Assembly (NCBI GenBank): GCA_001830395.1
Contig: MHZN01000269.1
Location: forward strand, 1 to 45,156
DNA length: 45,156 bases
Direction of reading: 5' to 3'
From: Pseudomonadales bacterium RIFCSPLOWO2_12_59_9
GTDB lineage: Bacteria > Pseudomonadota > Gammaproteobacteria > Pseudomonadales > Pseudomonadaceae
The notes under the pieces: model-generated
Seen by the model: the letters and a program-made list of their open reading frames with translations, nothing else
What the model was told of the DNA's origin: nothing
Database searches by the model: none
In this document: positions 5,082 to 32,455 of the stretch, in pieces
Layout: every line of letters starts with the position of its first letter
Numbering within the stretch: the stretch's first letter is position 1
Translations under genes and position numbers: made by a program

Positions 5082-5714
5082 TTACTCCATATTGGTAGCC
5101 CCTATTCGGGCTGTAAGGAAGGTTGACACAGCGATCTCCGACTTGGTTCGTGCCGTATGCTGCTTGACTTTTCGACTGTTCATCTTCGCATGGTGTACCG
5201 CTCGATCACGCTCCATCTCGTCGCGACCAATTAATCCGAAAAACAGTTTAAGTAAAATATCGCTCATTGATCTCATGCCATTGTATTTTTGTTTAGCCCC
5301 GACATGCAGGTGATCATAAAAATGTTGTACGCCAAGCCCGTGCTCAATTAGTGGAGCGAATTCATTGCTGTCAATGTGCACCACTTTATTACCCTTAATG
5401 AATGATAGCTTGGCACCATTAACACCGTGAGTATCGGACGCCATAGTCCCCCAAGCAAACACTACAGGACAACCCGAAAGTTTTTGCACATCCATTGCTT
5501 TTTCAATTTCAATCTGGCTTGGGCATGGCCCTTTGACCTCTAGGTAAGTACTTGCACCATAAAGAAAAAAGTCAGGAAGGTACATTCCATGCCTTGTCTC
5601 ATATAGCTTATGCTCATATAGCCATCGAAGCTCCAGCGCATCCATCATCAAGGCCCACCTAGCCTCAGAATACGAGCGCATCCAATAATCTTGATGAAGA
5701 ACAACAGAGCTCAT
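5082..5714 (-). CDS. PD-(D/E)XK nuclease-family protein
   Basis: RSYSEARWA...YE...YLPDFFL...YLEVKG signature; AT-rich. GGAG RBS favours ATG 5714 over 5729. Confidence 0.75.
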   Translation of the reverse strand: MSSVVLHQDYWMRSYSEARWALMMDALELRWLYEHKLYETRHGMYLPDFFLYGASTYLEVKGPCPSQIEIEKAMDVQKLSGCPVVFAWGTMASDTHGVNGAKLSFIKGNKVVHIDSNEFAPLIEHGLGVQHFYDHLHVGAKQKYNGMRSMSDILLKLFFGLIGRDEMERDRAVHHAKMNSRKVKQHTARTKSEIAVSTFLTARIGATNME

Positions 5715-6158
5715 TACATAGTTCTCCATGAATTGTTATAGCCAATTCATTTTTTAATTATTTTGACTATCGAATATATTCTTGAAAACAGCAAAATACA
5801 ATAATTTGCCCCCCCCTTAGAGCCAACGCTGAGCGGTATAGGCTATGCGTTGGGCATGCTAGCATGTCGTTTTTCCTGAGTGGCACCTGCAATTCGGGGG
5901 AAAAGCGTGGAGCATTGAGCGCTGCCTGTTACCGCGATGATCATCCGCATCAAGGAACTTAACGTTACCCGGCGGCCCTAGTCAAAAATTGGCTACAATC
6001 CTTCAACCTAATCAACTTCGCGCTTCGCTTAGGGTGCAGCGAGTCAACTTGAGCGACGATCAGCCTTCTGCATGGCGGCTTCTATCTAGTATAGGATCGG
6101 CGTTCATACAAGTTATGTATTATCTACTTTCCTTAAGCGCTCACGTAGACGCATCCCA

Positions 6159-8108
6159 ATGCCAGCCTCCATCATCAGCGACGACCATTACTTTCTCCCT
6201 CTCAGCCCTGAAACGGCACAGCAGTTGGTGCAGAGCCACCACGATCTGCCCAGCCTTCAGCTGCCAGAACTTGCAGCTGTACTACTGATTCAAAATTTGC
6301 CGGCCCTAGTGCGCGCGGGACAGACGGCACCCAGGATCGAGGCGGCCCTGGCTAAAGCACTGAGCACCGGGTTGGATTCAGATGCTGAATATGGCGCCGA
6401 TACCTTTGTTCAGGCAGTTGCGGAGCGCTTCTCGCCGGCAGCTTTCAAGGAAGGGCTCGGTCTGCTTGATGGCCTGATGTTTAACCTACTGGAAGTGAAT
6501 GAGGTTGCAGAGCGTAAGTATCTGGAGTCCGACGGCAGTTGGAACTTCAACTTCCGCATTGAGCACGCCGCCCAGCTCAACCCCCTAAAGGAAGCTATCG
6601 CAACCGCGTCGGGTGAGACGATTTTCTTGTCGACACCGCAGTTTCGTATTTTCAAGACACTGCGCAGCGAGCTGGACGAGCATCTCCACCTGCAGGGGTT
6701 GGCCGGCGTCGGTAAAACGTCAATGATTAGCACTCTACTGGAGTACTTAAAGCCAGAAGAAACGTTGCTTTTGGCTTCTACTTCTCAACAGCTACATGCA
6801 CTAACTGCTCGCCTAGGCAGTAAAAAGTTCGTCGGCATGACTTTTGGCCAGCTTGCGAGTCAACTGCTATTCACGCCGCCCACGGTTTACAGCAGACCGG
6901 ATAGGCAACGCTACCAACCGACTTATCAGATGGCGGACGCGGATGTTGCCAAAATTCTGAGTTTCCAGCCGGTTGGTAGCTTTTCGATTACGCGAGTAGC
7001 CGATATCTGCCGTCGCATCGTGCAAAGCTTCTGCTACTCAAGCAACAGAGAAATTTCTGCAGACAACATACCGTTAGTAGACGGAGGTCTGAGCGGTGCT
7101 GACAGAGCGGCGTTGCTCGGCTATTCCAATTTGATGTGGCAGGAAATCACTCAGCCTCGTCTTCTATTCGAAGGTAAGAAAACTCACCTCCCGATTCGTG
7201 TTTATCATCTTTTGAAGTTGCTATCGCTCGATACCAGCATTTCTCTCAGCCTTGCGGCCTATCGCCACATCTTGATCGACGAGGCTCACGACCTATCTGC
7301 TCCGCTGCTGCAGTTTCTTGATCGTTGTCCCCAGGCAACCTGCACCCTCGGCGATATCTGCCAGCGTCTGGACGGTCTGCCTGCGCGGCGTGGAATGCAT
7401 GTCCGGCAGCGGGAAATCTCGCAGTCGGTGCGTTCCGGGCGGCAAATGGAAGTGATTTTGAATCCCCTCATCGCAGCACATCCGCGTGCAGAACTAGCGC
7501 CGCTGGTCGGTGCTCGAGATAAGAAAACGATCATCGAGTACTACGACCGATCGGACATTCCTGACGACGGCACAACCATTCTAGTGAAGAGTGAGTGGGG
7601 GGTATTCGAGTGGTTCCAGCGTCTTGCCGGTGCTGACGCTAGCTTTTGTATGATGCCTGAATGCGAGAAGCAGTTTCGGCGCTTTGTTAACGACTGCATC
7701 GAGCTTTATCACCACGGTTCGCCGCCCAAGCACGCCGTTCTGTTCCGACACAGCACCTGGGACGGCTTGGCGGCAACTTACGCCAACGACTACTCGTTCA
7801 AGACCATTGAGACAATGCTGGAGCGGGGTTACAGCTCAAACGACTTCGAGCGTTCAATGGAGAAAATGGATCGTACAGGGCACGCCAAGATCCTCCTGGG
7901 GCGGGTTAGTGACGCTCGCAGCCTAGAAATGGATAAAGTTATGCTGGGGCGAGATCTGCTCTCCCCCATTCGGACAGGCGATATCGACGAGGCGGCGAAG
8001 ACGTTTGCTGGGCTCTATACCGGCGGCTCGCGGGCGCGCTACAAACTCATTGTGCCCGGGCACATGCGCGACTGGATGGTTGACCAAGCAGCTAAAGTGA
8101 AGAAGTAG
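6159..8108 (+). CDS. Superfamily 1 (UvrD/Rep-like) helicase with N-terminal extension
   Basis: Motif I GLAGVGKT, II ILIDEAHD, III LGDICQ, IV QSVR, V ARSLEMDKV, VI LYTGGSRARYKL. Confidence 0.8.
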   Translation: MPASIISDDHYFLPLSPETAQQLVQSHHDLPSLQLPELAAVLLIQNLPALVRAGQTAPRIEAALAKALSTGLDSDAEYGADTFVQAVAERFSPAAFKEGLGLLDGLMFNLLEVNEVAERKYLESDGSWNFNFRIEHAAQLNPLKEAIATASGETIFLSTPQFRIFKTLRSELDEHLHLQGLAGVGKTSMISTLLEYLKPEETLLLASTSQQLHALTARLGSKKFVGMTFGQLASQLLFTPPTVYSRPDRQRYQPTYQMADADVAKILSFQPVGSFSITRVADICRRIVQSFCYSSNREISADNIPLVDGGLSGADRAALLGYSNLMWQEITQPRLLFEGKKTHLPIRVYHLLKLLSLDTSISLSLAAYRHILIDEAHDLSAPLLQFLDRCPQATCTLGDICQRLDGLPARRGMHVRQREISQSVRSGRQMEVILNPLIAAHPRAELAPLVGARDKKTIIEYYDRSDIPDDGTTILVKSEWGVFEWFQRLAGADASFCMMPECEKQFRRFVNDCIELYHHGSPPKHAVLFRHSTWDGLAATYANDYSFKTIETMLERGYSSNDFERSMEKMDRTGHAKILLGRVSDARSLEMDKVMLGRDLLSPIRTGDIDEAAKTFAGLYTGGSRARYKLIVPGHMRDWMVDQAAKVKK

Positions 8109-8267
8109 TTGGCTGGAAGCGGCAGTTCGTTCCCGGACTCGGAACTGAACTAACGCAGTTACGCTAGCTCACATTAGGATACATTGGCCTGTCAGCAGTG
8201 GTGCGCAAGCGTCTGTATCGAACTGAATCGGCCGAGGTTTCGTTAACACATTTGAATGACTACTTCT

Positions 8268-8456
8268 GGCCGACTCTATTGAAAAAGTCGGCCTTGGTTA
8301 TCAGGCGACTGAACAGTTGGCGCCTGAGATTTAAACCCCTAAAACTCGGCAGAGGTTTGCGGACTCGGATCTCACATAACGACGCGCAGAAAAGGCGTTT
8401 TCATTGATCACTATTGGGGTCGTTCGGGCAAAGCAACCTTTTCAGCAGAATCGGCC
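8268..8456. mobile_element. ~190-bp MITE-like element with IS1182-like terminal inverted repeats
   Basis: ggccgactctattgaaaaagtcg ... caaccttttcagcagaatcggcc: 18/23 inverted match, GGCC at both ends, no transposase. Confidence 0.65.
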
Positions 8457-8541
8457 GAAGGCAGATATTGGAGCCCCATTCAAGTTGAGCCATGGTCAGT
8501 GCTTTGTGGAATCGACCAGCTTCCGAGCGGAGTGCCATCAA

Positions 8542-8979
8542 TTAGTTCAAGCCGATATGCAGGCTAAAGAGGCGGGTGCCTAGCCCAAGTGCCTCGGCAA
8601 CCAGCGAGCGGGCAAGTTCTTTGCCACCCTTGGTCGCGACTTCATTAAGTCTCTCACCGATTGATGCCTTCCCTTGTAGGCTGGCAGGCACTGCTCGCAA
8701 GACTTCTAGACCTTTGCTTGTCAAAAGGACATCAGCGACATACAGCTCATTTTCAGCTTTGGTTGTGATGTAACCAGCGCTTTCGAGCCAGCGTATGCAG
8801 GCAAAAAAGAACTCAGCTTCTTCGCTCGGGACGTCGCAACCGAGGTGTTCGTTTGCTACCGACGGAGTTGCTACATAGTCTCCTGCTTTCAGCAGGCAAG
8901 GCACAGGAAAGTAGCTATAGAGTTTTGCGAAAACCTCACCTGCAATTTCGTCAAATCTTTCAATATTGGACGCTGACAT
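8542..8979 (-). CDS. Hypothetical protein, possible winged helix
   Basis: 145-aa ORF with ggaag RBS; IRWLESAGYI...LTSKGLEVL pattern typical of wHTH-like domains. Confidence 0.7.
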   Translation of the reverse strand: MSASNIERFDEIAGEVFAKLYSYFPVPCLLKAGDYVATPSVANEHLGCDVPSEEAEFFFACIRWLESAGYITTKAENELYVADVLLTSKGLEVLRAVPASLQGKASIGERLNEVATKGGKELARSLVAEALGLGTRLFSLHIGLN

Positions 8980-9499
8980 CTGTATCTTCCCTCTCGATCA
9001 TCCATTGTTGGCAAACAAGTGAACACTGCTGCCAACTCTACGTTTCCGACCCAAAGCTGCCACCACCACTAACTCCTTCGACAGCGTTTGGCCAATGTCT
9101 GCTCGTGAAAGCACAATGCCGCATGCAAGTCGAAGAGCCCTGCCCCCCCATTCTCATCAGCATCAAGATAGCGGAGTTGGTCAAGTTCACTCTCGACAAC
9201 ATTAACGCTCGCTCCCAGTCGAAAAGGTTCTCGTCGGCTGCTCTTGGCACATGCACTCTCCATTGTGACTCACTGCGGACGGTACACCACGCCTGTACTA
9301 ACGGCAAAGCTGAAAGCAACCATGTGAGGCCGAGGGGGCTGGTTAAAACGTTGATTTGAACATCCGCTTCTGGCTGTGGATTCAACCGGTAGAGCCTGTC
9401 AATTTCCTTATCCAAACCGATTCCAGAATTGTCGATTCAACTCAAAAATATTTCAGCCATACATCACCGCAATGACATCCCCACCCCGGAGCTCAAACC

Positions 9500-9838
9500 A
9501 TGTCATCGCAGTGTCCTTGCTGTTACTCCAAACGAATTGCCTCACTCAGAACAGCCATGAAGATCGGCGCTACCGTCGGCACGGTTGGTGGCGCTGCCAG
9601 AGGCATTAGTGGCGCCTTAGCAGGTGGCCAGATCGGCGCAGTCGCTGGCTCATTTATCGGACCAGTCGGTTCTACCCTCGGAGCCCTTTCTGGGGCAATC
9701 CTAGGCGCGCTGGCCGGTGGTGTCGGCGGCTGTGCCCTCGGCGCTCAGCTAGGTGACCAACTGGATCGCCACGTACTGGCCAATAACCTCTGCCTCGACT
9801 GCGGCCACCGCTTCAACCTGCGCTACGCCCCGACCTAA
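9500..9838 (+). CDS. Glycine-zipper membrane protein bracketed by Cys pairs (putative Zn ribbon)
   Basis: ggag RBS; N-terminal CPCC, long GxxxG run, C-terminal CLDCGHRF. Confidence 0.8.
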   Translation: MSSQCPCCYSKRIASLRTAMKIGATVGTVGGAARGISGALAGGQIGAVAGSFIGPVGSTLGALSGAILGALAGGVGGCALGAQLGDQLDRHVLANNLCLDCGHRFNLRYAPT

Positions 9839-9925
9839 TACCGCCACCCCTCTTCTCTTTAACCATCAGGCCAGCTGCGCAGTGCGCAGCGCTTATGCCT
9901 GCCTGCTCGAAAAGGAATCTCATTC

Positions 9926-10894
9926 ATGGCACATCTAATCGAACAAATGGCTTACGTTGGCCAAACCCCGTGGCATGGCCTCGGTAATCAACTCACGCAG
10001 AAACAGCCCATCGAAATCTGGCAGCGCGAAGCCGGCATGGACTGGCAGATTCAAGACAGCCCCGTCCATTTCAAAGCCGACAGCATCGGCCCGCTGGGCA
10101 CCATTCACTCGTTCCCGGAACAGAAGGTGCTGTTTCGCTCCGACACCAAAGCGCCGTTGTCGGTGGTCTCTAACCGCTACCAAATCGTTCAACCCCGCGA
10201 GGTGCTGGAATTTTACCGGGATCTTTCCGAGGTCTCTGGCTACGAGCTGGAAACCGCCGGCGTGCTGAAAGGTGGCCGTAAGTTTTGGGCACTGGCTCGC
10301 ACAGGCCAATCAGCGGTACTCAAAGGCAATGACGAGGTAAGTGGTTACTTACTGCTGGCCACGTCCTGCGATGGCACGCTGGCCACCACCGCCACGCCCA
10401 CCACGGTACGGGTGGTGTGCAACAACACCCTGAGCATTGCTCTGGATGGTGCTTGCCGGTCGATCAAAGTGCCGCACAACACCCGCTTCGATCCGCAAGC
10501 GGTGAAGAAACAGCTCGGCATCGCCGTCTCGCAATGGGACGAATTCATGTACCGCATGCGTAATCTGGCCGAGCGGAAGGTGCAGTGGCATGAGGCGATG
10601 GGCTTCTTTATGAACGTGCTGTGCGACGTGAGCCCCAACAGCAAATTGCCTGAAGTACTGCCCAACGAGCGCGCACTGCGCAAAGTGCAGGCGCTGTATG
10701 AAGGCCAAGGCCGAGGTGCCACGCTGGCGTCAGCCAATGGCACTGCCTGGGGTTTGCTCAACGCCGTAACCGAGTACGTCGATCACGAACGCCGTGCTCG
10801 CAGCACCGAATACCGGATGGATTCAGCCTGGTTCGGTCAGGGCGCGCAGATCAAGCAACGCGCACTGGATGCTGCACTCACGCTTGCAGCTTAA
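9926..10894 (+). CDS. DUF932 (phage/plasmid-like, TIGR03299-type) protein
   Basis: MAYVGQTPWHGLG, YQIVQPREVLEF, TAGVLKGGRKFWALA, RVVCNNTL, GTAWGLLNAVTEYVDH. Confidence 0.9.
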   Translation: MAHLIEQMAYVGQTPWHGLGNQLTQKQPIEIWQREAGMDWQIQDSPVHFKADSIGPLGTIHSFPEQKVLFRSDTKAPLSVVSNRYQIVQPREVLEFYRDLSEVSGYELETAGVLKGGRKFWALARTGQSAVLKGNDEVSGYLLLATSCDGTLATTATPTTVRVVCNNTLSIALDGACRSIKVPHNTRFDPQAVKKQLGIAVSQWDEFMYRMRNLAERKVQWHEAMGFFMNVLCDVSPNSKLPEVLPNERALRKVQALYEGQGRGATLASANGTAWGLLNAVTEYVDHERRARSTEYRMDSAWFGQGAQIKQRALDAALTLAA

Positions 10895-10967
10895 CTTCCA
10901 CGCCACTCAATGACGCCAGGTCGGCCTTGTGCTGGTCGGACGTTTTTATGTCTGCAAGGAATTCATC

Positions 10968-11966
10968 ATGAAGACTCAACCGAATACCAGCAGCAAGCCC
11001 CGCCCCGCCCTGCGCCTGGTCACCACCAAGGCCATGCCCCGAGATGAATGGCTGGCCGTGCGCAAGGGTGGCATCGGCAGTTCGGATGCGGCCGCTGCCG
11101 TTGGCCTCAACCCGTACAAATCGCAGTTAGAGCTTTGGCTGGAGAAAACCGGACGTGACGCAGCCCTCCCGAAAATCAACCCACACGATGAAGAGTCACC
11201 AGCGTACTGGGGCAACATTCTCGAACCCATAGTGGCCTCGCACTACAGCAAGCGCACCGGCAACCGCGTACGCCGCATCAATGCCGTGCTGCAGCATCCC
11301 GACCCTGAGTTGCCCTGGATGCTGGCCAACATCGACCGTGAGGTCATCGGTGCGGATGACGTGCAAATCCTCGAGTGCAAAACAGCCGGCATAAACGGCG
11401 CGCGCCTCTGGAAAGAGGGCGTGCCCGAGTATGTGCAGTTACAGGTGATGCACCAGTTGGCCGTCACTGGCAAACAGTCAGCTGATGTAGCGGTGCTGCT
11501 GGGTGGTCAGCATTTGGAGATCCACCGTATTGAGCGCGACGAAGGAATGATCGCTCGCCTGATAGCGCTGGAACGCAAGTTCTGGGACTACGTGGTGACC
11601 GACACCCCGCCGCAGGCCGATGGCTCGGACTCGGCTGATCAGGCGCTGCGCTGCCTTTACCCAGAAGACAGCGGCCAGGTCGTGGACTTCAGCGCTAACC
11701 CGGCGCTGGCCATTGCGTATGTTGAGCTCAAGTCTGTTCGCCAAAGCATCGCCCAGCAGGAAAAGCGCGAATCTCAGCTCAAGCAAACCCTGCAGCAGGC
11801 CATGGGTGAAGCTACCCGCGCGAAGTTTTCCAGCGGCTATATCACCTGGAAAAAGGCCAAAGACAGCACCGCGCTGGATGTAGCTACGATGCTGAAAGAG
11901 AAACCTTACCTGCAAGTCCGCTACGCCATGGTCAAGGAAGGCAGCCGCCGTTTCCTGATCGCCTGA
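10968..11966 (+). CDS. YqaJ-like viral recombinase / lambda-exonuclease-family protein
   Basis: WLAVRKGGIGSSDAAA, WGNILEP, LANIDR, ILECKT, QVMHQLAVTG; aagga RBS before ATG 10968. Confidence 0.92.
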   Translation: MKTQPNTSSKPRPALRLVTTKAMPRDEWLAVRKGGIGSSDAAAAVGLNPYKSQLELWLEKTGRDAALPKINPHDEESPAYWGNILEPIVASHYSKRTGNRVRRINAVLQHPDPELPWMLANIDREVIGADDVQILECKTAGINGARLWKEGVPEYVQLQVMHQLAVTGKQSADVAVLLGGQHLEIHRIERDEGMIARLIALERKFWDYVVTDTPPQADGSDSADQALRCLYPEDSGQVVDFSANPALAIAYVELKSVRQSIAQQEKRESQLKQTLQQAMGEATRAKFSSGYITWKKAKDSTALDVATMLKEKPYLQVRYAMVKEGSRRFLIA

Positions 11967-12049
11967 CATGCCCAGCCACCCAACCCAGCCACCCTGACAG
12001 TTAGCGCTGTCTCGGTGGCTTTTCTATTTTCAGATGAAGGAAAGCCAGC

Positions 12050-12940
12050 ATGCTTAAAGGTCTCGCTATCACCCCGCCTATTCTCGGGCGGATTTCCATC
12101 GGCAAGGTCGTCGAGAAAAACGGCAAACGCCTACCCGAGAAAGACGATCAATTCACCATTACCTCGCAACTGCAGAGTAGGGACGGCTGGCTACTGCATC
12201 CGCTCGATGAGGCGCTGCGTAAAAATCAAGAAGGCAAGCTGCGCAGCATCCCAATCCGGCTGCTGTTCAACGAGCCTGATCTGAACTTTCGTGCCGAGTA
12301 CAGCCTGTTCGACCGCGCCACCGGGCGACCGGTTTGCGTGGGCAATGGCGAGACCTGCAAACGGCAATGCGCGGATGGGATTCAGTCGCTGCCCTGCCCT
12401 TCACCGGATGGTTGTTCACTGGCGCAGGGTGGTGCCTGCAAACCCTACGGGCGGCTTAACGTGGTGATCGGTGATGAGGATTCGTTGGGCAGTTTTGTGT
12501 TTCGCACCACCGGCTTCAACAGCATCCGCACCCTGACGGCGCGCCTGCACTACCTACAAGCCATTTCAGGCAATCGACTGGCCTGTCTGCCGCTGGAGCT
12601 GCGTCTGCGGGGTAAATCCACCCGGCAAAGTCATGGCACGCCAATCTTCTATGCCGACATCACAGTACGCAGTGGCATGAGCATGGAGGAGGCATTGCTG
12701 GCTACCAGACAACTCGATCAAGAACGGCAAGTCGCTGGTTTCGACCAGGCCGCGCTGGACACTGCCGCCCGACAGGGCTTCAGCAACGGCGCGTTCGAGG
12801 ACAACGAGGAGGACAGCAGCGCTATCGCCGAAGAGTTCTTTCCTGCTACCGAACAGCTGCTATCCGTGGCTGTAACCAGAACGCCACCTTCACTGGCTGA
12901 AAAGCTGGAATCGCTGGCGACTGAGCAGCCGTCCCATTAA
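12050..12940 (+). CDS. Gp3-like / putative metal-binding recombination-associated protein
   Basis: GRISIG..LPEKDD.F, CVGNGETC..CPSPDGC..CKPYGRL, FRTTGFNS; the usual neighbour of YqaJ in such islands. Confidence 0.75.
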   Translation: MLKGLAITPPILGRISIGKVVEKNGKRLPEKDDQFTITSQLQSRDGWLLHPLDEALRKNQEGKLRSIPIRLLFNEPDLNFRAEYSLFDRATGRPVCVGNGETCKRQCADGIQSLPCPSPDGCSLAQGGACKPYGRLNVVIGDEDSLGSFVFRTTGFNSIRTLTARLHYLQAISGNRLACLPLELRLRGKSTRQSHGTPIFYADITVRSGMSMEEALLATRQLDQERQVAGFDQAALDTAARQGFSNGAFEDNEEDSSAIAEEFFPATEQLLSVAVTRTPPSLAEKLESLATEQPSH

Positions 12941-15724: not shown

Positions 15725-16210
15725 TCAATCTGTCCGGCTATTAAGTGGCGCGGGGCTCACCAGCCCTACCTGGCTAAACTTCAGTGATATATAACCATCA
15801 TGCGAGATTGACAACATCCAGCTAATATCCTCACAAAATAACTCAATATCATCGCTGCCTGGATACCATATGTAAGAAAAATACTCACAAAGGTCCTTCA
15901 GTTTAAATCTGTCAATTTTATCAAACCTATACCAGTTTACATATATTTCACCAGCAGGGTTTAAGTTGAAATATTCAAAAACGCTAGTCAAGTTAAAGTT
16001 GGGAGAGTCGGCCCTAATTTTACAACCTTCCTCCTCGATCAGCTGGAAACGATCCATTGACTCAGGAAGTCGAACGCCAAAGACCCTGTAGAACAGTTCA
16101 AATATTTTATCTTGCAAAGAGCGAAGCTCAATTCCATTCACGCGCACATGCAAAGGAAAATCTATCTTGCTATTTTCCCGCTTGAAATTTTCAATTTTAT
16201 AATCTTCCAT
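15725..16210 (-). CDS. Putative cognate immunity protein of the Rhs toxin
   Basis: AT-rich, 11 bp downstream of the toxin stop, ggag RBS; aromatic/acidic IWYPGSDDIELF..WMLSISHDG. Confidence 0.8.
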   Translation of the reverse strand: MEDYKIENFKRENSKIDFPLHVRVNGIELRSLQDKIFELFYRVFGVRLPESMDRFQLIEEEGCKIRADSPNFNLTSVFEYFNLNPAGEIYVNWYRFDKIDRFKLKDLCEYFSYIWYPGSDDIELFCEDISWMLSISHDGYISLKFSQVGLVSPAPLNSRTD

Positions 16211-16221
16211 TATTCTGGCTC

Positions 16222-18966
16222 CTAGCACTGAAATGGTGATGGAACTGCTGGACAGCCAAACATATTTGGATTTTCTTCACACGCTTCTTCAAGGCCTGGA
16301 GGTAAAAATAGTGGAGGTATTGCCTCTAATATCTTCTCGGCTCCTGACTTTCCACCGCTTCCTCTTTTCCCCTTCGTAAAATCCCACCAGTTAATATGTG
16401 GACCTGACTCAGGATCGCCAGCTGGACGGTTTGGATGTCCTGGATCGAGTCTGTAGCCTTTCTTGCCGTCGCCTGCCTGAGGACTGCCAAATTTCCCGGG
16501 TTCTCCCTTTGGCAATCGCCCGCCAAGGGCCTCATGTACTTTTCTCAATGCCTCTTTAATTTTGCTAATGCTTGGTGCCAGGCCGTAAGGATCACTAAAC
16601 CCAAGTGGATTACCGTCCACATATCCGTAAGTATTCAGCCCACCATCCAGCCCAATCGGATCACTTTCGACGTAGCGTCCAGTCGCCGGATCATAGTCCC
16701 TGAAGTAGTTGTAGCTCAGGCCGCTGTGGCCGTCGTATTGCTGGCCGGGGAAGCGCAGTGGCATGTCGAGGACGATGCCGTCGCCATCCACATCACCATT
16801 CACTGTACCTACGCCAAAGGCGTCGCTGTTCCAGCTCCACAGCAGTTGCTGGCTGGCGCCGGTGGCTTGGCGTGGGGTGTTGAGGTGATCGCTGTGCAGG
16901 TAGTACTGCTTGGTGCTGGCGACTGTGGTGCCGTTGCTGGCGAACTTCTGCTCAATCCCCGCTAGTGGCAAGCCGTCGAGCCAGATCCAGTATTGCGCGA
17001 AGGTCTTTTTGCCGGTTGAACCGTACTTCACCTGGCCGAGCAGCTGGCCATCGGCACCGTACAGGTAGCTGTAGGTGGCGCTTGGGGTTGTGGCGTTGGT
17101 GCTGCTGTACACCCGCTTCAGGGTGCGCTGGCCGAGAGCGTTGTAGCTGTAGTTGGCGTACAGGTTGGTGGGGTTACGCACCTCGTGTAGGCGGCCTTGT
17201 TCGTTGTACACATAGGTTCGGCTGGTGGCCTGCTGCAGGGTGTTACCGGCGGCGTCGCGCAGTACCACGAAACTGCCATTTTTCAGCAGGCGGTTGCTGT
17301 CGGGCGCGGTGGTCAGAGTTTGGCTGGTGAGTTTGCTTTCAACGCCGGCAGTGGTGGTGTAGCTGACGCGCTGCTTGCGGTTGCCGGTGGCGTCGTAGCT
17401 GTAGGTTTTGCGCTGGGCGGTGTCCTTTTCTTCAGTAAGACGATCAAGGGCGTCGTAGCTGTAGTTGAGGTTGCCAAACAGGCTGTGATTGCGGCCCTTG
17501 ATATTGCCGTTGGCGTCAAAGCTGTAAGTGCTCTGCCAGGAACCGATGATCTGCTCGGCCAGTTGATAGTCCTGGTCGTACTGACGGTCGAGCTGGATGC
17601 CGTTGCCCCAGGTCAGACTTTTCAGTGGACCGAATGGCAGGTAGCTGAGGTTGCTGGCGATGCTGCTGGCAGGCGCGCTGCCAATGGTCAGGTTAACGCC
17701 AATCACTTGGCCGGCGCTGTTGCGCGGATAAGTCACGCTAAAACCGCCGGGGTAGCCGATGCCGGTCAGTTGGTTGGCGTTGTCGTAGACGTAATTGAGC
17801 AGCTCATCCTTGGGCAGTGTGGCCACCGTCAGCGAGCGGGCCTGCTGCTGCAAGTTACCACGCGCGTCGTAGCTGTAGCCCATCAAGCCACCGGAGTCTT
17901 GCAGCGCGGTCAGTCGGCCGATGCCGTAGTTGCCGCCGGAGGTCATGTCATAGGCGTAGGTGACGTTCAGCGCAGGCTTGGCCGGATAGGTACGCTTGGT
18001 CAGGCGATTGAGGGCGTCGTACTGGTACAGGGTGATCACGCCACGGGCGTCGTTTTTTTGCGTGACGTTGCCGGCCGCATCGTGCACGTAGGTGTTGATG
18101 CCGCTGTCGGGGCTGCTCAACTGGGTCAGGTTACCGAGGCCGTCGTATTGATAGTCGGTGGTGACGTTGCGCGGGTCTTTGACCTGGGTGAGGTTATCTT
18201 GGCCATCGTATTGGTAACTGGTGATGCCGCTCAGTGGGTCGGTGTTTTGCACCAGGCGATTGAGGGCGTCATAGGCTTGGCTGTTGTTGTGATTGAGCGG
18301 GTCAGTGCTCAGCGTCGGGTTGTCGTTGAGGTCGTAGGCCTGTTTGTGGGTTTGGTTGCCGGCACCCACGCTCTTCATAAAGCGACCGAGTTCGTCATAG
18401 ACCCAGGTGTTCTGTTTGGTCAGGTTGTTACTGGCGTCTTTGAGGCGCTGGGCGGTGCGGTTACCCATGGCATCGAGACTGTATTCAACCGTCTCGCCGA
18501 GGTTATTGGTGATAGCCGTCAAGCGGCGCGCATCGTCCCACGTATAGGTCAGTGAACTACCGTCGCCACGGGTGACCTTGGTTATGTCACCCACCGCGTT
18601 GTGCTCAAAGCTGGTGGCGCTGCCGGCGGTGCTGATAGAGGCCAGCCAACCTTGCGGCGCGTAAGCCAGGCTGCTGCTGACGTTGTTAGCATCGACCATG
18701 GTTTGCGGATGGCCGAGGGTGTCGAAGTTGCTCAGGGTGGTGACGTGACCCAGCGCATTGGTGACGGTGGTCAGGTGACCTTGGGCGTCATAGGCGTAGC
18801 GGGTAATGTCCGAGACGTCAGTACGCGGGCCGTCGGCGGTTTCGATCAGGCCAAGGGCTGTATAGGTGTAGGCCCAGCTGCGCTCGTCAGCGTGGGCCAG
18901 CGAAACGCCAATGGCGCTGCTCAACGCGAGCGATAACAGGCTCGCGCGGTAGAGGTGTTTGTTCAT
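16222..18966 (-). CDS. Rhs protein, C-terminal half: own Sec signal peptide, YD repeats, Rhs-associated core, 118-aa toxin tip
   Basis: MNKHLYRASLLSLALSSAIGVSLAHA; many YD repeats; HSDHLNTP, LRFPGQ, YNYFRDYDPATGRYVESDPIGL...NPLGFSDPYGL. Confidence 0.93.
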   Translation of the reverse strand: MNKHLYRASLLSLALSSAIGVSLAHADERSWAYTYTALGLIETADGPRTDVSDITRYAYDAQGHLTTVTNALGHVTTLSNFDTLGHPQTMVDANNVSSSLAYAPQGWLASISTAGSATSFEHNAVGDITKVTRGDGSSLTYTWDDARRLTAITNNLGETVEYSLDAMGNRTAQRLKDASNNLTKQNTWVYDELGRFMKSVGAGNQTHKQAYDLNDNPTLSTDPLNHNNSQAYDALNRLVQNTDPLSGITSYQYDGQDNLTQVKDPRNVTTDYQYDGLGNLTQLSSPDSGINTYVHDAAGNVTQKNDARGVITLYQYDALNRLTKRTYPAKPALNVTYAYDMTSGGNYGIGRLTALQDSGGLMGYSYDARGNLQQQARSLTVATLPKDELLNYVYDNANQLTGIGYPGGFSVTYPRNSAGQVIGVNLTIGSAPASSIASNLSYLPFGPLKSLTWGNGIQLDRQYDQDYQLAEQIIGSWQSTYSFDANGNIKGRNHSLFGNLNYSYDALDRLTEEKDTAQRKTYSYDATGNRKQRVSYTTTAGVESKLTSQTLTTAPDSNRLLKNGSFVVLRDAAGNTLQQATSRTYVYNEQGRLHEVRNPTNLYANYSYNALGQRTLKRVYSSTNATTPSATYSYLYGADGQLLGQVKYGSTGKKTFAQYWIWLDGLPLAGIEQKFASNGTTVASTKQYYLHSDHLNTPRQATGASQQLLWSWNSDAFGVGTVNGDVDGDGIVLDMPLRFPGQQYDGHSGLSYNYFRDYDPATGRYVESDPIGLDGGLNTYGYVDGNPLGFSDPYGLAPSISKIKEALRKVHEALGGRLPKGEPGKFGSPQAGDGKKGYRLDPGHPNRPAGDPESGPHINWWDFTKGKRGSGGKSGAEKILEAIPPLFLPPGLEEACEENPNMFGCPAVPSPFQC

Positions 18967-18984
18967 AGTTAGTCCGTCCTTGGC

Positions 18985-20622
18985 TTAAAGAGCTGTGCTG
19001 GTGCTGATCTGGCTTAACTGGCGACCTTGCGTGTCATAGGTGTAAGTGGTGACGCGGCCGGGTTCAGTTACCGTCAGTGGTAAAAAGAAATCCGTGTGCC
19101 AAGTGGTCGTCGTGGTGCGCGCTTGCGGCGTGCCAGATGCTTCGGTGCGAGTGGTTTCTAGGCCTCGGTCGTTGTAGTCGTAACTGGTGACGAAACCCTT
19201 GTTATCGGTCTTGGTCTTGAGCAGGCCACGGGCGTCGTAGGTGAAGGTGGAGTTGCTATTAGGACAATTGGCCGATGCGGCGCCTGACAGCGAAGTGACG
19301 CGTGCTGCCCCCTGAATAGTTTGGAACGTGTAGGTGGCTGTCTTCAGTAGAGGATTGGTCAGGGTAGTGGAGCCATTACCGTTGTAGGCGAACAGGTATT
19401 TTTCGGCCCCGCCGTTGAGTTCACTTTTAGTGGCGCGGCCTTGCGCATCATAGGCCCAGGTGACGTAACGGATGTTGCGTTCATCGGTGATGCCGGTCAG
19501 CCAGCCGCCCTCGCGAGCGTCCTCATAGTGGTAAGTACGTGACAAAGTCTCTCCATTCTGAGTACGAGCTGCCTTGGTCACGCGGCCAGATGCGTTGTAG
19601 ATGTAGGCCACTTGTAGCGAGCCCGCAGTCAGCCCTGTCAGGCGCTTGCTGGTATTGAGTGTGAGGGTCATCGACCTACCGAGCGAGTCGGAGACCACAA
19701 TCTGGTTAGTGCCGTAGACCAGGGTTTCGTAAGTGCCGTTGGCACGCTCAATACGAGTCAACTGCCCCAGAGTATTGAAATATTGATGCTCATTTTGAGC
19801 ACTGTCGTAGCGCCACCCGGATGCAATTATCGCTAGACGCCCCAACTCTTTTGGAGACGCTGTGACCGTCGTGCCGGAGACGGTGAACAAGCTTTCGTGC
19901 CCATCTTCGCTGATCAGTAAGACCTTGGTCGGAGATACCTTCAGCTTGGCCGAGTAGGTATGGGTCCAGTTGGCTGTTTTGCTGTTGTAGAAGCGTGCAA
20001 AGCTCAGCTGTGTACCTGGAAGCCCTTTGTAGTCGACCTCGACCTGATAGCTATTGCCGTTGGAGACATTGATTGGGTCGCCCTGCGCTTGGCTGGGGGC
20101 GCCTGGCGCAGCGGCTTGAACGGGGCAAGCACCGGGAAGATCAGGATTGCCTATACCGCTGACCTCCGGGCAGAGCAACTCTGCGGAACGATCATAGAAA
20201 ACAGGGCCGGCAAAGACATCAAAGTGGGTCTGATTGGCTCCTGTATAACTCGTGGCTGCGACCCCATCGACTGAGCCCGTAAAATTGTCGTGAAGCACCA
20301 CTGCGTGGGTCTTACAAGTGTTGGGGAACACGCGGCGCATATTGGCGCTGGATTGTTTGAGCGTCGCCAGCATCTCATCGGGGGTGTACCAATTGCTGGT
20401 CTCTGTCCACTTGATAACCTTGCCGCTGGAACATTGCAGGCCCGCAATCTTGTACAGGTACTGCCCGGAGCCGTTCGGGGCTTGCGGGGCCGCATAGACC
20501 TCGGTGCCGAAGTAGCTGACGCCGCCGGTCGTACAGTTCACTGCCGCAGAGGCGGATTGGCAAACAATGGCACCGGCTGAAAAAACGAAAGCGAGACTGA
20601 GTTCGCGATAAGAACGATCCAT
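18985..20622 (-). CDS. Rhs protein, N-terminal half: signal peptide, Cys-rich variable domain, DUF6531, YD repeats
   Basis: MDRSYRELSLAFVFSAGAIVCQSASA; GDPINVSNGN..LSFARFYNS..WTHTY; YD repeats up to the stop; no Rhs core. Confidence 0.88.
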   Translation of the reverse strand: MDRSYRELSLAFVFSAGAIVCQSASAAVNCTTGGVSYFGTEVYAAPQAPNGSGQYLYKIAGLQCSSGKVIKWTETSNWYTPDEMLATLKQSSANMRRVFPNTCKTHAVVLHDNFTGSVDGVAATSYTGANQTHFDVFAGPVFYDRSAELLCPEVSGIGNPDLPGACPVQAAAPGAPSQAQGDPINVSNGNSYQVEVDYKGLPGTQLSFARFYNSKTANWTHTYSAKLKVSPTKVLLISEDGHESLFTVSGTTVTASPKELGRLAIIASGWRYDSAQNEHQYFNTLGQLTRIERANGTYETLVYGTNQIVVSDSLGRSMTLTLNTSKRLTGLTAGSLQVAYIYNASGRVTKAARTQNGETLSRTYHYEDAREGGWLTGITDERNIRYVTWAYDAQGRATKSELNGGAEKYLFAYNGNGSTTLTNPLLKTATYTFQTIQGAARVTSLSGAASANCPNSNSTFTYDARGLLKTKTDNKGFVTSYDYNDRGLETTRTEASGTPQARTTTTTWHTDFFLPLTVTEPGRVTTYTYDTQGRQLSQISTSTAL

Positions 20623-21518: not shown

Positions 21519-24500
21519 TCAAGGAATGCTGGATTCCGCGCTGAGCTGCCGCCGACGCATCAAGCGGTAGGCCGCGGGAATGACAAACAATGACAACAAG
21601 GGCGCGGTGAGCATGCCGCCGACCATTGGTGCAGCGATGCGGCTCATCACTTCGCTGCCGGTGCCACTGCCCAACAGGATCGGCAGCAGCCCAGCGATGA
21701 TCACCGCCACCGTCATGGCCTTGGGCCGCACGCGCTGCACGGCGCCTTCGCGAATCGCGGCGAGCAGTCCAGCTTCGCTGCTGTCACCGGAGTCCTCTCG
21801 CTCAGTCCAGGCGCTCTTTAGGTACAGAAGCATAATCACGCCAAACTCGGCGGCTACCCCGGCCAGGGCGATAAAGCCGACACCGGTGGCCACCGACAGA
21901 TTGAAGTTCAGCCAATAGAGAAACCACACCCCGCCCGTAAGGGCGAACGGTAACGAGGCCATGATCAACAGGGCCTCGTCGAAACGGCTGAACGTCAAGT
22001 AAAGCATCACAAAAATGATCAGCAGGGTCGCCGGCACCACCAGTTTGAGCCGGGCATTGGCCCGTTCGAGAAACTCGAATTGCCCCGAGTAGCTCAGGCT
22101 CATGCCCGGCTGCAACTTGACCTGCTCACCCACTGCTCGGCGTAGGTCGGCGACCACCGACGCTATATCGCGGCCCCGTACGTCGATATAGACCCAGCCG
22201 GAAGGTCTGGCGTTTTCGCTCTTCAACATGGGGGGACCATCACTAATCTTGATCTTCGCCACACTGCCAAGCGTGACCTGAGCGCCCTGCGCGGTATATA
22301 TCGGCAGTTGCTCCAGAGCATCGAGGGAGTCGCGCCACTCACGGGGGTAGCGCACGTTAATCGGGAAGCGTGCCAGCCCTTCGATGGTCTCACCGACGTT
22401 TTCACCGCCAATGGCGCTGGCCACGATCGACTGCACATCGGCAATATTCAGCCCATAGCGGGCGGCTGCCTGGCGGTCGATGTCCACGTCGATATAACGT
22501 CCGCCAGTCAGGCGCTCGGCCAGCGCCGAACTAACCCCAACAACACTTTTGGCGGCACGCTCGACGGCCTGGGTGACCTGGTCAATCTCCAGCAGATTAG
22601 TGCCTGCGACTTTGACCCCGATCGGGCTTTTGATCCCGGTGGCGAGCATGTCGATGCGGTTACGGATCGGTGGAATCCAGATATTAGTCAGCCCCGGCAC
22701 CCTAACCACCCGATCCAACTCATCCACCAGCATTTCCTGGGTCATCCCTGGCCGCCACTGCTCGCGCGGTTTGAACTGGATGGTGGTCTCGAACATCTCC
22801 AGCGGCGCCGGGTCGGTGGCAGTTTCAGCGCGTCCGGCTTTGCCAAACACGTGTTCGACCTCCGGCACCGTCTTGATCAGGCGGTCAGTCTGCTGGAGCA
22901 AGTGGAACGCTTTCTGCGTCGACAGCCCCGGCAGAGCCGACGGCATATAAAGCAGATCGCCCTCATCCAGCAGTGGTAGGAACTCACCGCCGAGACGCGA
23001 GATCGGCCACAGCGCACTGAGAAACACCAACAGCGCTACTAGCAGAGTGACTTTCGGCCAGCGCAGCACCGCGTCGAGGACCGGTTGATAGACCGCGATT
23101 AGCCAGCGGTTCAACGGGTTCTGTTGTTCCGTGGGAATCCTTCCGCGAATCCAGTAGCCCATCAGCACCGGCACCAGGGTCACCGACAACCCGGCCGCTG
23201 CCGCCATGGCATAAGTCTTGGTGAAGGCTAGCGGGCCAAACAAACGACCTTCCTGGGCTTCCAGGGTGAACACCGGGATGAATGACAGAGTGATGATCAA
23301 CAGGCAGAAGAACAGCGCCGGACCGACTTCCACCGCAGCTTCGGTCATCACCTGCCAGTGCTGCCCGCCTTTCAGCTCTTCGCCAGGGTGGGCCACATGC
23401 CAGGCCTCGATCTTCTTGTGGGCGTTCTCGATCATCACCACCGCAGCATCGACCATGGCACCGATAGCAATGGCGATCCCGCCGAGGGACATGATGTTGG
23501 CGTTGATGCCCTGATAGCGCATGACGATAAAGGCGATCAATACGCCAATCGGCAGCGAGATAATCGCGACGAGCGAAGAGCGTAAGTGCCAGAGAAAAGC
23601 TACGCAGACCAGGGCAACGACAATGAACTCCTCAAGCAGTTTGTGGCTGAGGTTGTCCACGGCGCGATCGATCAGCTTACTGCGATCGTAGGTGGTGACG
23701 ATTTCCACTCCGACCGGCAAGCTGCGCTTAAGGTCCTCGAGCTTAGCCTTGACCGCTGCGATGGTCTCGCGGGCGTTCTTGCCACTGCGCAGAATCACCA
23801 CACCGCCGACCGTTTCACCCTCACCGTCCAGCTCGCTGATGCCACGGCGCATTTCCGGTCCTTGTTGAACAGTGGCCACGTTGCCGAGTGTCACCGGCAC
23901 TCCCCCGGCCCCGAGCCTGAGAGGGATCGCGCGAAAGTCATTCAGCGTCTTCAAGTAGCCGGAGGCGCGCACCATGTACTCAGCCTCGGCCATCTCCAGT
24001 ACGGCACCACCGGTTTCTTGGTTGGCTTTACCAATGGCCTCGATCACCTCGGCCTGGGTGATACTCAGGCTGGCCAGCTTGAGCGGGTCAAGCACCACCT
24101 GATACTGCTTGACCATGCCGCCGATGGTCGCCACTTCAGCGACATTGGCTAGAGTCTTCAGCTCGAACTTTAGGAACCAGTCTTGCAGCGCGCGCAGTTG
24201 CGCCAGGTCGTGTCCACCGCTGCGATCCACTAGGGCGTACTGGTAAATCCAGCCCACGCCGGTGGCATCCGGCCCCAGGGCCGGTTTTGCGCTGGCCGGC
24301 AGGCGACTCTGGATCTGACTGAGGTACTCCAGCACCCGTGAGCGTGCCCAGTACAGGTCGGTGCCGTTCTCAAAGATGACATAGACGAAGCTGTCGCCGA
24401 AGAACGAGTAACCGCGGACCGTCTTAGCTCCCGGTACCGAGAGCATGGTAGTGGTAAGTGGATAGGTAACTTGGTTTTCGACGATCTGCGGTGCCTGGCC

Positions 24501-24662
24501 CGGATAAGGGGTGCGGATGATCACCTGCACGTCAGAGAGGTCGGGCAACGCATCAATCGGCGTATTCTGCACCGACCAGACACCCCAGGCGGTGACGAAC
24601 AGGGTGACCAGTAGCACCAGGAAACGGTTGGCCACCGACCAGCGAATAAGAGCGGCGATCAT
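21519..24662 (-). CDS. cusA: CusA/CzcA-family heavy-metal RND efflux transporter (Cu/Ag type)
   Basis: [56 protein letters not shown]. Confidence 0.96.
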
Positions 24663-26152
24663 GGCTGCTCTCCGAGCTTCTCCAAGCGCTCAACCTGCAA
24701 TCCAGCGTCAGTTTGGCTCACTGCCACCCGCACCTTGTCACCAGCCTTGAAGCCCTCCGCCAGCATGGGAGCCGCCAGCTGAAAGGTCATGGTCATTCCG
24801 GGCATACCCAGGGTCTTGAACGGACCATGGGCGATGGTCACGCCCTCGTGTTTGATCTCAACAATCTGCCCCTCGGCCTCATGCAAGACGGGACTGGCTG
24901 CGGCCGGCATCGGCGCAGCAATTGAGACTAAACCTTTGAGGCTGGCTTCGGAGTCGAGCAAAAACTGTCCGGAAGCAACCACCTGCTGCCCCTCCTCAAG
25001 CCCTTGCAGCACCACCGTTTTGCCGTCGCTTTCCCGTCCGAGCTGCACGTCGACTGGGCGATAGCGCCCGCCAGCTTCGGCGAGCATTACCAAAGCACGG
25101 CGGCCGGTGCGGATCACGGCTTCGCTCGGCAGCCACAACAGGTCTTGCTCGCCAGGACGATTCAGGCGCACCTGCGCCGTCAAGCCCGGCCGCAAGCGAC
25201 CGTCCGGGTTGGGCAGTTCGACCCGCACCCGAAGCGTACGACTGTCGGCATTTGCCTCGGGCAAGATGGCACCGACCTTGCCACTGAGCACTTCGCCAGG
25301 AAAGGCTGGTAGACGTGCCTCGACCGTCTGACCAATCGCAAGAGTGCCCGCTTGTGCCTCTGGAACGGCCACCGCGAGCCAGACGCTGTCCATGCCATTG
25401 ACGCGGGCCAAAGTGTCGCCAGCCGCCACACTCATCCCCGCACGCACATTGAGTTCCTGCAACACACCGTCAATCGGACTGCTGATGGTCAGGATGGGCT
25501 GGGCCTTTCCGCTACGTTCTACCTGGGCAATCAGTGCCGCTGGTATCCCCAAGAGGCGCAGCCGATGGCGTGCTGCTACCAACAAGTCAGTATCGCCATT
25601 ACGCTTCAGGGCGAGGAATTCTTCCTGGGCGGCGGCCCATTCCGGTACCAAAAGGTCAGCCAATGGTGCATTGGCTTTAAGCAAATCGCCTGGAGCACGG
25701 GCATACACGTGCTCGACAAAACCTGCGGTTCGCGCCTGCACCACGGCGATATCCCGCTCGTTGAACGTCAACACGCCAACCACCTCCTGGCTGCTGGCGA
25801 CGGCCCCGCGAGTCACCTTGGCCAGACGCAGGCCGAGATTTTGGGTCAGACTGGGGTCAATGCTGATGGTCGCGCGGTCCCCAGCGGCATCGGCGCTATC
25901 TTCTTCGGCATAGCGCGGCACCAGCTGCATGTCCATGAAGGGTGACTTCCCTGGTTTATCAAACCTCTGCTGCGGGGACATCGGGTCGTACCAATACAGC
26001 ACCGGGCGCTGCTCTGGCGTGCTGCTGACCGGCTCAATTGGCGCCCTGGGTACTGCTGGCTGGTGCTGTTGAGCAAACCAGTAGCCGCCGACGACGCCCA
26101 AGGTGATCGACACACCAGCCAACATCACTGCGCTGTAGATTCGGCGGCTCAT
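24659..26152 (-). CDS. cusB: CusB-type periplasmic adaptor with fused C-terminal CusF-like domain
   Basis: [22 protein letters not shown]; MFP core; [12 protein letters not shown]; C-terminal [19 protein letters not shown]. Confidence 0.92.
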
Positions 26153-27405
26153 TGGCTGGTATCCCCATAACTGAAATGCAACTGGGCACTGATCAGCGCC
26201 CGTTGTTCTTCGAAATCAATCTGTTTGAGGCGCGCTTCGATCAACTCGCGTCGAGCGTCGATAACGCTCGCCAGCTCACCTTTACCAGCGCGGTAACTGG
26301 CCATGCTCAGCTCAACTTTTTCTTTGGCCAACGGTAGCAAGCGGTCCTGACTGCGACGCACGGCTCGCTCAAGGCGCAGGTAGTTGGCCAGGTCATCCTC
26401 CAGTTGCTGCGCATGCTCGCGACGGATGACTTCACGCTCGGCCTCCAACTGGTTCAGTTCGGCATGCCGGGCCGAGATCTTGGGGTCCTGCCGGGAACCG
26501 GGAAATATCGGTAGATCGACGCTGAACTGCACGCTCACCATGTCGCCAAACTCTCGGCCCCGCTGCTGGTAATCGACCTCCCAACTCCAGTCGGAGTCTT
26601 TGTCAGCCTCCGCTTCACGCACCTTGGCCTCAGCCTCGCGGGTAATAGGGACGAAGGCTGCCAGTGCAGGGTGATGGAGTAGCTGATCACTGTAGCCAGC
26701 GGTATTGATTGACCATTGCGGCCAACTGCCTGCCAGCGGTTCATTAGCGGCCGGTCCAATCCAGCGTTTAAGAGCCGCACGGGCCTGGCTGCGCAAGCGG
26801 ACCAACTCGTCTTGTTGCTCTTCCAGTAGTGCGGCCTCCTGTTTTGTGGTCACGGCATCGACGGGCTGTGCACGTCCACCAGCGATCTGCGCGCGGACAC
26901 TATCGGCCAGCAAGCGGTTCTCACGGAAGAAGTCCTCGAACAGCGCCTGCTTGCGCTCCACCGAGTAACTGCTGATCCACGCCAGTGCGGTGGCCTGGCG
27001 AACATTGAAGCGCTCCACCTGGCGCTCTGCGGTGGCCCGGTCAATGGCGGCCTCGGCCACCTCAATGCGCGCCCGGCGCTTGTCGCGGTCGGTCACCTCC
27101 TGCATGACCCCAACCATGCGCATGGTCATGAAGTCCTGGTCGATACTCCAACGGTCGGGACCACCAATGGGATAGTTCTGCACACCCAGCAGCAACTTGG
27201 GATCGGGCAACTCCCCGGCAGGCATGGCGGCACTGGTGGCAGCTTGCAGCTTGGCCGTTTGGGCGCTCAACGAAGGGGCATTGTCTTCAGCCAACCGTAA
27301 GGCTTCGGCGAGGGTCAGTGGCGCAGCCAAGCTCGGCAATGCCAACACGATTGCCACCAGGGCAGCCGCAGCGGGCCATCCAGTGCAATAGCGATTGCAG
27401 TTCAT
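26149..27405 (-). CDS. cusC: TolC-family outer-membrane efflux channel
   Basis: Signal peptide, ELPDPKL..MTMRMVGVMQE, helical OEP repeats; 4-bp overlap with cusB; cagga RBS before ATG 27405. Confidence 0.88.
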   Translation of the reverse strand: MNCNRYCTGWPAAAALVAIVLALPSLAAPLTLAEALRLAEDNAPSLSAQTAKLQAATSAAMPAGELPDPKLLLGVQNYPIGGPDRWSIDQDFMTMRMVGVMQEVTDRDKRRARIEVAEAAIDRATAERQVERFNVRQATALAWISSYSVERKQALFEDFFRENRLLADSVRAQIAGGRAQPVDAVTTKQEAALLEEQQDELVRLRSQARAALKRWIGPAANEPLAGSWPQWSINTAGYSDQLLHHPALAAFVPITREAEAKVREAEADKDSDWSWEVDYQQRGREFGDMVSVQFSVDLPIFPGSRQDPKISARHAELNQLEAEREVIRREHAQQLEDDLANYLRLERAVRRSQDRLLPLAKEKVELSMASYRAGKGELASVIDARRELIEARLKQIDFEEQRALISAQLHFSYGDTSQ

Positions 27406-27411
27406 GTTGTG

Positions 27412-27505
27412 GATTCCTGTGATCATTCGCTGCATGCAACGCAAACGCGCACGCATGCCAACCTTTTCGCCAAGGCGAAAAAGACATCAATGTTTAGCAG
27501 GAATC
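27412..27505 (-). promoter_or_regulatory. Structured leader that can sequester the cusC Shine-Dalgarno
   Basis: On the mRNA, GAUUCCUG at the uORF stop pairs perfectly with CAGGAAUC (SD). Internal hairpins are ttttcgcc/ggcgaaaa and gcatgc..gcatgc. Confidence 0.6.
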
Positions 27506-32396: not shown

Positions 32397-32455
32397 GGAA
32401 AGCGTGCCCCCCTATTGCCCTTCCAATCGACAACACTCTTATTTTCAGACGTCCC

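Follow-up and report, generated by a model that had tools for sequence, protein, structure and literature searches.

The window analyzed here, 45,156 nucleotides of contig MHZN01000269.1 from Pseudomonadales bacterium RIFCSPLOWO2_12_59_9, carries on its reverse strand two adjacent genes, A and B, that would together encode a single Rhs toxin in two parts. Each part begins with its own predicted Sec signal peptide, and we read the pair as the cap and body subunits of one cage. The features of the locus are as follows.

18985..20622, minus strand: gene A, cap subunit of the split Rhs, 545 aa
20545..20622, minus strand: predicted Sec/SPI signal peptide of A, residues 1-26 (heuristic, plus similar leaders on A homologues)
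20083..20544, minus strand: variable Cys-rich N-domain and linker of A, residues 27-180; predicted targeting or display domain
19885..20082, minus strand: DUF6531 plug of A, residues 181-246 (Pfam/NCBIfam)
18988..19884, minus strand: first turn of the YD shell in A, residues 247-545; codon of C453 at 19264-19266
18967..18984, minus strand: 18-bp spacer between A and B, with an AAGGA ribosome-binding site for B
16222..18966, minus strand: gene B, body subunit and toxin tip, 914 aa
18889..18966, minus strand: predicted Sec/SPI signal peptide of B, residues 1-26, ending in AHA before DER (heuristic, plus leaders of homologues)
16579..18888, minus strand: YD shell and Rhs-associated autoprotease core of B, residues 27-796
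16327..16578, minus strand: tip of B, predicted BECR-type RNase toxin domain, residues 797-880
16225..16326, minus strand: tail of the B tip, 34 residues with 3 Cys
15725..16207, minus strand: predicted cytoplasmic immunity gene, 160 aa from an ATG behind AGGAG; reading frame open from 16228

The first-pass annotation of this DNA, made from the letters alone, had described two open reading frames (ORFs), a stop of A in the middle of its repeat array, an 18-bp spacer, and a ribosome-binding site and leader belonging to B, all of which were found as described. Gene A ends in ...TYTYDTQGRQLSQISTSTAL. Scanning with Pfam/NCBIfam identified DUF6531 (residues 181-246) and RHS repeats in A, and RHS repeats and the Rhs-associated core (residues 728-796; TIGR03696) in B. 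The same scan found no PAAR domain in A or B, and the 28 ORFs of the window that it covered gave no match to a VgrG, Eag, or Tc family, in agreement with the annotation. SpvB and TcdB_toxin_mid domains were not found at the locus, nor was a linked TcA among the conserved neighbors. The N-domain of A, which together with its linker holds cysteines 30, 64, 103, 151, and 166, had no Pfam match. In the core of B, D769 and D792 are invariant among 107 aligned B proteins. The predicted N-terminal autocleavage position of A is D182-P183; P183 aligned with residue 1 of the Tse5 chain, in an alignment stretch that is weak, and cleavage before DUF6531 has been described for other Rhs proteins (PMC12704120, PMC8765631).

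The junction between A and B is spanned without indels by contigs of three of four public sequencing runs, in two variants, and one of those runs may be the source sample. At window position 18912, all three covering runs have G where the window has T, which changes residue 19 of the B leader from Ile to Leu; this is a strain variant or an assembly slip and leaves the reading unaffected. The genome, 74% complete, contains a second split locus (contig C108:3575-7600) in which two tandem A genes with different N-domains precede a B gene. That B is 89% identical to the window B over its start and is cut off by the contig end.

Conservation, pairing, and fit of the two halves

The N-termini of A and B both show basic residues, a hydrophobic core, and an A-x-A end, with signal peptides judged by a heuristic (basic start, hydrophobic core, small residues at -3 and -1). 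The 11-residue Kyte-Doolittle mean of the hydrophobic core is 2.4 for A and 1.9 for B. The same seam and a signal-like leader are present in 114 of the 120 best B homologues, the other 6 being single-chain. Within those 114 B-type homologues, a hydrophobic stretch lies directly before the mature start in 113, the residues at -1 and -3 are small in 112, and the leader is 23 to 28 aa long in 110. A hydrophobicity threshold of 1.4 is by itself reached somewhere in 63 of the 114 mature shells, so the evidence for a leader lies in its position, its length, and its n/h/c pattern and not in the threshold. Similar leaders occur on A homologues (127 of 151 anchored). To judge from these alignments, the start point shared by 114 of the 120 best B homologues is not a matter of chance.

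The annotation had proposed checking whether the split point and the second leader are conserved across the genus, and the search bore this out. The first 99 residues of B were matched in 23 of 400 genus genomes at 1e-12, and none of the 28 match places lies in a frame longer than 968 aa. The spacer measures 15 to 26 bp in 30 of the 32 genus entries with a value, some of these entries being duplicates. An order-wide search with the C terminus of A matched 54 of 401 genomes and gave 29 loci outside the window's own genome. In 15 of these the two genes are separate and B bears a leader, as seen directly in 11 and after refetching in 4; another 8 loci are fused, which leaves 6 unclassified. The split loci span ten families and the fused loci seven.

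The two ends of the pair vary widely. The variable domains of A fall into 61 families among 127 A proteins, and the hypervariable tips of B into 42 families among the 107 parsed. In the comparison of pairings, 39 A domains represent 29 families and 28 tips represent 24; the A-domain family of the window is found beside 7 tip families, and each of three tip families is combined with differing A domains. A domains and B tips pair independently, in line with the swapping that the annotation had suggested. From one to four complete A genes stand before one B at a locus (four in L053 and L165), and orphan A genes lie downstream of B in L065 and L076. In four loci, A extends past the seam and a B with its leader still follows (L158:2327-4660; L159:5070-7556; L160:4656-6758; L161:3384-6611, with the domains repeated in L161). 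The extensions in L158, L159, and L161 consist of TSP3-like repeats and an unnamed domain, and that in L160 is another added domain; the added C-terminal domain of L158 gave nothing significant against PDB sequences. A broken gene would not gain domains at its break, and the gains in A therefore argue against that origin. The tandem A arrays, the domains added at the seam, the spread outside one genus, and the cysteine pattern described below all go beyond what the annotation had noted.

Two unusual loci were also observed. At L038:1-3180, a normal B is immediately preceded by a different Rhs N-terminal half, which closes with the same strand motif at its end; the frame of this half is longer than 1059 aa, with a leader-like start and a weak tetratricopeptide repeat (TPR) match. 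At L079:5835-10427, an Rhs gene whose N terminus looks pilin/TadE-like when read by eye precedes a DUF6531-type motif; this gene is interrupted and has no second leader.

A quick maximum-likelihood tree built from 50 B-region sequences scatters the six close fused proteins over three positions within the split clade and leaves distant fused forms outside it; several of the close ones join the end of A directly to the mature start of B. The pattern of these sequences suggests fission from a single-chain Sec-type ancestor followed by later re-fusions, part of which recombination could mimic; the single-chain members of the signal-peptide Rhs class likely represent the ancestral state. The annotation had named fused close homologues as evidence that would count against an evolved pair. 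Single-chain proteins do make up 6 of the 120 best hits, but they are nested in the split clade and resemble re-fusions.

AlphaFold2 (AF2) models of both proteins show a YD shell, with a predicted template modeling score (pTM) of 0.81 for A and 0.75 for B, in which residues 752-914 have low confidence. The A model superposes on the plug and first turn of RhsA (271-686) with a VIA-align Z of 27.8, at 3.0 Å root mean square deviation over 351 aligned residues, and B matches the remainder of Rhs cages with a Foldseek E value of about 1e-42. A supplies the plug and B the autoprotease end, and from plug to DPxG the two together measure 1133 residues, versus 1037 to 1052 in prePAAR-type single-chain T6SS (type VI secretion system) Rhs proteins. 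The annotation had called for a complex model as a check for one continuous cage. Modeled together, A(165-545) and B(27-640) scored 0.86, versus 0.00 for the best control, on a scale whose mark was attained for 116 of the 157 solved complexes and for 2 of the 215 mismatched pairs; contact agreement was at least 92% and the confidence (pLDDT) of the partner at least 87. In this model the first strand of B (B31-34) pairs with the last strand of A (A534-539), and behind this pairing the two rings touch. Two halves of a familiar fold may score well through resemblance, which makes the model evidence of fit and not of binding. Conservation, phylogeny, independent pairing, and the complex model support the annotation's proposal that A and B are an evolved two-chain cage and not a broken gene.

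Payload, immunity, and cysteines

The tip domain (797-880) has 235 relatives at E values of 0.001 or less, mostly located at the C terminus of an Rhs or HINT carrier; a profile of the domain matches CdiA-CT 5T86_A over 47 positions (E value of 2.4e-5). The 5T86 structure is described as having a BECR fold (bioRxiv 10.64898/2026.05.10.723254). The family shares invariant G-Y-R, two His, and Trp residues; the tip part of the AF2 model is of low confidence. From its sequence, the tip is likely a BECR-type RNase, antibacterial and acting in the cytoplasm. Its 34-residue, three-cysteine tail is absent from most other carriers of the same toxin domain. An atlas search with the tip gave no match over 0.82, and no second locus with this tip was found in 400 phylum genomes. 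Among 52 B proteins scanned, other tips were Tox-HNH-EHHH, Ntox33, Ntox37, Ntox44, and DUF4329. A serum amyloid A domain (PF00277) forms the C-terminal tip of B proteins P0078 and P0112. The gene directly after the tip, with a GC fraction of 0.40, is predicted to encode immunity to it. Its atlas lead, 0.93 to DUF6756/DUF2947/DUF4275 clusters, is weak by the tool's own measure, and its product gave nothing significant against PDB sequences.

The cysteine content of the pair follows a pattern. Every one of the 107 B tips parsed (of 114; 42 families) has an odd number of cysteines, and the B shell is free of cysteine in 102 of these 107. The count is likewise odd in the N-domain of 123 of 127 parsed A proteins (of 162; 58 of 61 families), and C453 is invariant in 104 aligned A proteins. 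Among the controls, other carriers of the tip's toxin domain gave an odd count in 22 of 68 parsed (of 150), and non-prePAAR Rhs proteins of the genus are even in 14 of 17. The tips of T6SS Rhs proteins that a motif labels as prePAAR-type are odd in 22 of 22 (control loci L087-L126); a Cys lies within their first three or last four residues in the 19 with positions given. Of 76 single-chain relatives parsed (of 118), 73 have odd tips, whether or not they possess an equivalent of C453. The idea that odd-cysteine tips are unique to the split class was rejected on these last two counts. A bond between the spare tip cysteine and C453 of A also lacks support, as tips are odd in 26 of 29 single-chain relatives without that cysteine.

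The parity of the N-domain behaves differently. Of the single-chain relatives that have one Cys at the position of C453, 23 of 26 show an odd N-domain count, versus 5 of 19 that lack it, kin among them not being independent. Since N-domain parity follows the cysteine at this position, a disulfide within A between the linker and C453 is likely, and one thiol of the tip would be left unpaired. Alignments did not show C453 to be homologous to C538 of RhsA, which has a conserved wall cysteine of unknown role (PMC8765631). A term search of three other Rhs structure papers found no discussion of disulfides or cysteines of this kind. The odd-cysteine tips point to an unrecognized step in Rhs delivery, possibly a general feature of it.

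Elsewhere in the window, a CusCBA-type heavy-metal efflux operon lies directly upstream of gene A (21519-27456), and a mobile-element module with integrase, AAA protein, DUF932, YqaJ recombinase, and Gp3-like genes adjoins the pair on the other side (3635-12940). A CdiB/CdiA-type two-partner system with a downstream PoNi immunity gene makes up a second polymorphic toxin locus (31081-44619). A Ser/Thr kinase with TPR adjoins a PP2C phosphatase (787-3198), and the window contains no tRNA.

Export, relation to known Rhs systems, and interpretation

The distribution of secretion genes among carriers bears on how such a toxin might leave the cell. Two of five carriers checked for VgrG (G162 and G379) have neither TssC nor VgrG, and G379 is a single contig, 100% complete, with an intact locus. 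The T2SS (type II secretion system) protein GspE is above the cutoff in 22 of 25 carriers, and GspD and GspG are present in the window's own genome. For exit through the outer membrane, the T2SS is our best single guess, at about even odds, and not a requirement; vesicles, lysis, or another secretin would otherwise serve.

Judged by the features tested in these sequences, the pair has the makeup of an Rhs polymorphic toxin, and it is neither a T6SS effector nor a Tc component. With T6SS Rhs effectors (Pseudomonas protegens RhsA, 7Q97; Photorhabdus laumondii Rhs1, 7PQ5; Tse5, Tse15, and RhsP) it shares a DUF6531-type plug, a YD cage, a DPxG autoprotease core, a variable tip, and a downstream immunity-like gene. 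Those effectors are single chains carried on VgrG/PAAR, whereas here there are two genes, predicted signal peptides, a Cys-rich variable N-domain, and no PAAR, VgrG, or Eag. The Tc toxin pairs TcB-TcC and YenB-YenC, which Foldseek also matched, have an RHS shell from two genes, as is predicted for A and B, the second gene with the protease core and cargo. Tc components are not known to have Sec leaders. Unlike them, the present locus has no SpvB, propeller, or TcA part, and its seam follows the first YD turn, which is itself preceded by a DUF6531 plug. TcB-TcC and YenB-YenC are described as one RHS shell from two separately encoded chains (PMC11067744), and Tc toxins are assigned to a type 10 route (PMC13018210).

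Sec-exported relatives are closer in other respects. WapA (Streptococcus suis WapA-CT1; Bacillus subtilis WapA) is also a Sec-exported Rhs toxin, and the S. suis barrel ends as two fragments, DUF6531-Rhs1 and Rhs2 (PMC12704120), but it is the product of one gene, cut by autoproteolysis and anchored to the wall of Gram-positive cells, and it has SecF-like and sortase partners. Signal-peptide ("T2SS/Sec") RHS polymorphic toxins of Proteobacteria were predicted from their signal peptides to be T6SS-independent (PMC3482391), as were Xanthomonas and Ralstonia Rhs families by gspG linkage (bioRxiv 10.1101/2025.05.08.652813); the available parts of those two sources describe no two-gene cage or second leader, and here no gspG is linked. 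Bacterial teneurin-like proteins (9IFO) are Sec-signal YD shells with polymorphic toxic C termini and unknown delivery (PMC13018210); unlike the pair, they are single chains with a teneurin superfold and surface anchors. Single-chain WapA-like and "T2SS" Rhs proteins differ in that here no single polypeptide runs from signal peptide to tip. Known precedents thus cover parts of the arrangement, namely a two-gene shell, a Sec-exported barrel cut in two, and predicted T2SS/Sec Rhs proteins. No description of a two-gene, two-leader Rhs was found in the literature, subscription journals and bioRxiv supplements lying outside the search.

We consider it probable, at roughly 0.8, that A and B form an assembled two-chain, Sec-exported Rhs toxin, likely put together in the periplasm, that does not use the T6SS. 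A leader on each half and a seam shared by many bacteria make it likely that cells export the halves separately. Several observations weigh against this. The signal peptides were judged by heuristic, the tree is a quick one that recombination could distort, and the complex model may pass from likeness to solved single-chain cages. TssC is present in 18 of 24 high-quality carriers (absent from 6), and G133 and G335 have intact pairs with no GspD, GspE, or GspG above the cutoff, which counts against a strict T2SS route. No accessory or export gene is conserved beside the pair in the 40 loci, where only chromosomal context shared by kin recurs. In G324, two B genes (L068, L069) stand without a neighboring A, and A also occurs without B (L155/L166). 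Single-chain versions exist, so the split is not obligatory, and frameshifts elsewhere in several loci (L002, L063, L075, L077) show that such loci do decay. The whole-model structure searches with A were dominated by the shell and returned no fold or ligand for that domain, so its targeting role is something we infer. As to the two B genes without an adjacent A, both are intact (L068:5373-8054 and L069:7951-10746), and their host genome has five B matches; they are candidates for pairing in trans.

That a single Rhs gene was broken by mutation or by an assembly error, the B leader being a chance sequence, might seem natural given this decay and the fused homologues, yet the same seam, spacer, ribosome-binding site, and leader recur across ten families, other assemblies bridge the junction, A has gained domains after the seam, and the close fused forms are nested in the split clade. 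We give it almost no weight; a pseudogene or assembly artifact is refuted by the conservation data and the junction-bridging contigs. Loading onto the T6SS, whether from the periplasmic side or by way of an adaptor encoded elsewhere, is scarcely more probable: the frequency of TssC and the closest solved folds, which are T6SS Rhs proteins, speak for it, and the Sec-type leaders, the lack of linked PAAR, VgrG, and Eag, and the two carriers without both TssC and VgrG speak against it.

Two further explanations are unlikely to a lesser degree. The secreted proteins might act separately, B as a stand-alone, open-ended toxin and A as an adhesin or decoy, as the B genes without a neighboring A and the A genes alone or downstream (L065, L076, L166) would allow. 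B without a plug and A without a core nevertheless sum to one cage, direct A-B fusions exist, the complex model is strong, and lone copies in genomes with other loci (G324) could pair in trans. Slightly less improbable is a cage that remains attached to the surface of the producing cell or to vesicles, serving as an adhesin or for contact-dependent display, or that acts on eukaryotic grazers. The TSP3-like domains added to A, the two carriers missing the T2SS, and the precedent of surface-displayed teneurin-like proteins (PMC13018210) favor it, but the window's A and B show no evident lipobox or membrane anchor, and hypervariable tips with nuclease-type families, together with the immunity-like gene and the orphan tip modules, are in keeping with conflict between bacteria.

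In the preferred reading, a two-chain toxin exported by Sec, A and B would cross the inner membrane separately and assemble in the periplasm into one YD cage, the last strand of A pairing with the first strand of B and the turn of A stacking on the first turn of B, as modeled. The Cys-rich domains would undergo DsbA-type oxidation, and the disulfide from the linker to C453 would tether the variable domain to the cage once the chain is cleaved ahead of the plug. The tip, autocleaved at DPYGL, would sit inside the cage, which would then exit through the outer membrane, most likely by the T2SS. The variable domain of A would select or bind the target, the plug would open, and the tip would reach the competitor's cytoplasm, with the downstream gene protecting kin. 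The advantage would be combinatorial, since one body could be served by several caps and the free C terminus of A could take on adhesive domains. A more speculative extension, which we put forward tentatively and regard as doubtful, is a widespread, undescribed, T6SS-free, combinatorial two-subunit class, put together in the periplasm, in which arrays of interchangeable caps serve one body gene and also work in trans. Every payload would carry a conserved unpaired thiol, and its disulfide exchange, with the cap or with the envelope of the target, would trigger or anchor delivery.

How Rhs toxins without T6SS features exit the cell, find a target, and open the cage is an open question (PMC13018210, PMC11606950, bioRxiv 10.1101/2025.05.08.652813). 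Here the predicted targeting cap is separate from the body, which opens each of these steps to dissection by deleting one gene at a time. In databases the two halves go under unrelated names, "DUF6531" and "RHS repeat" proteins, which has probably kept the class out of sight. If our reading is true, two separate chains exported by Sec can make up a complete YD cage, and the diversification of polymorphic toxins would take place at both termini, by way of tandem cap arrays in addition to orphan tips.

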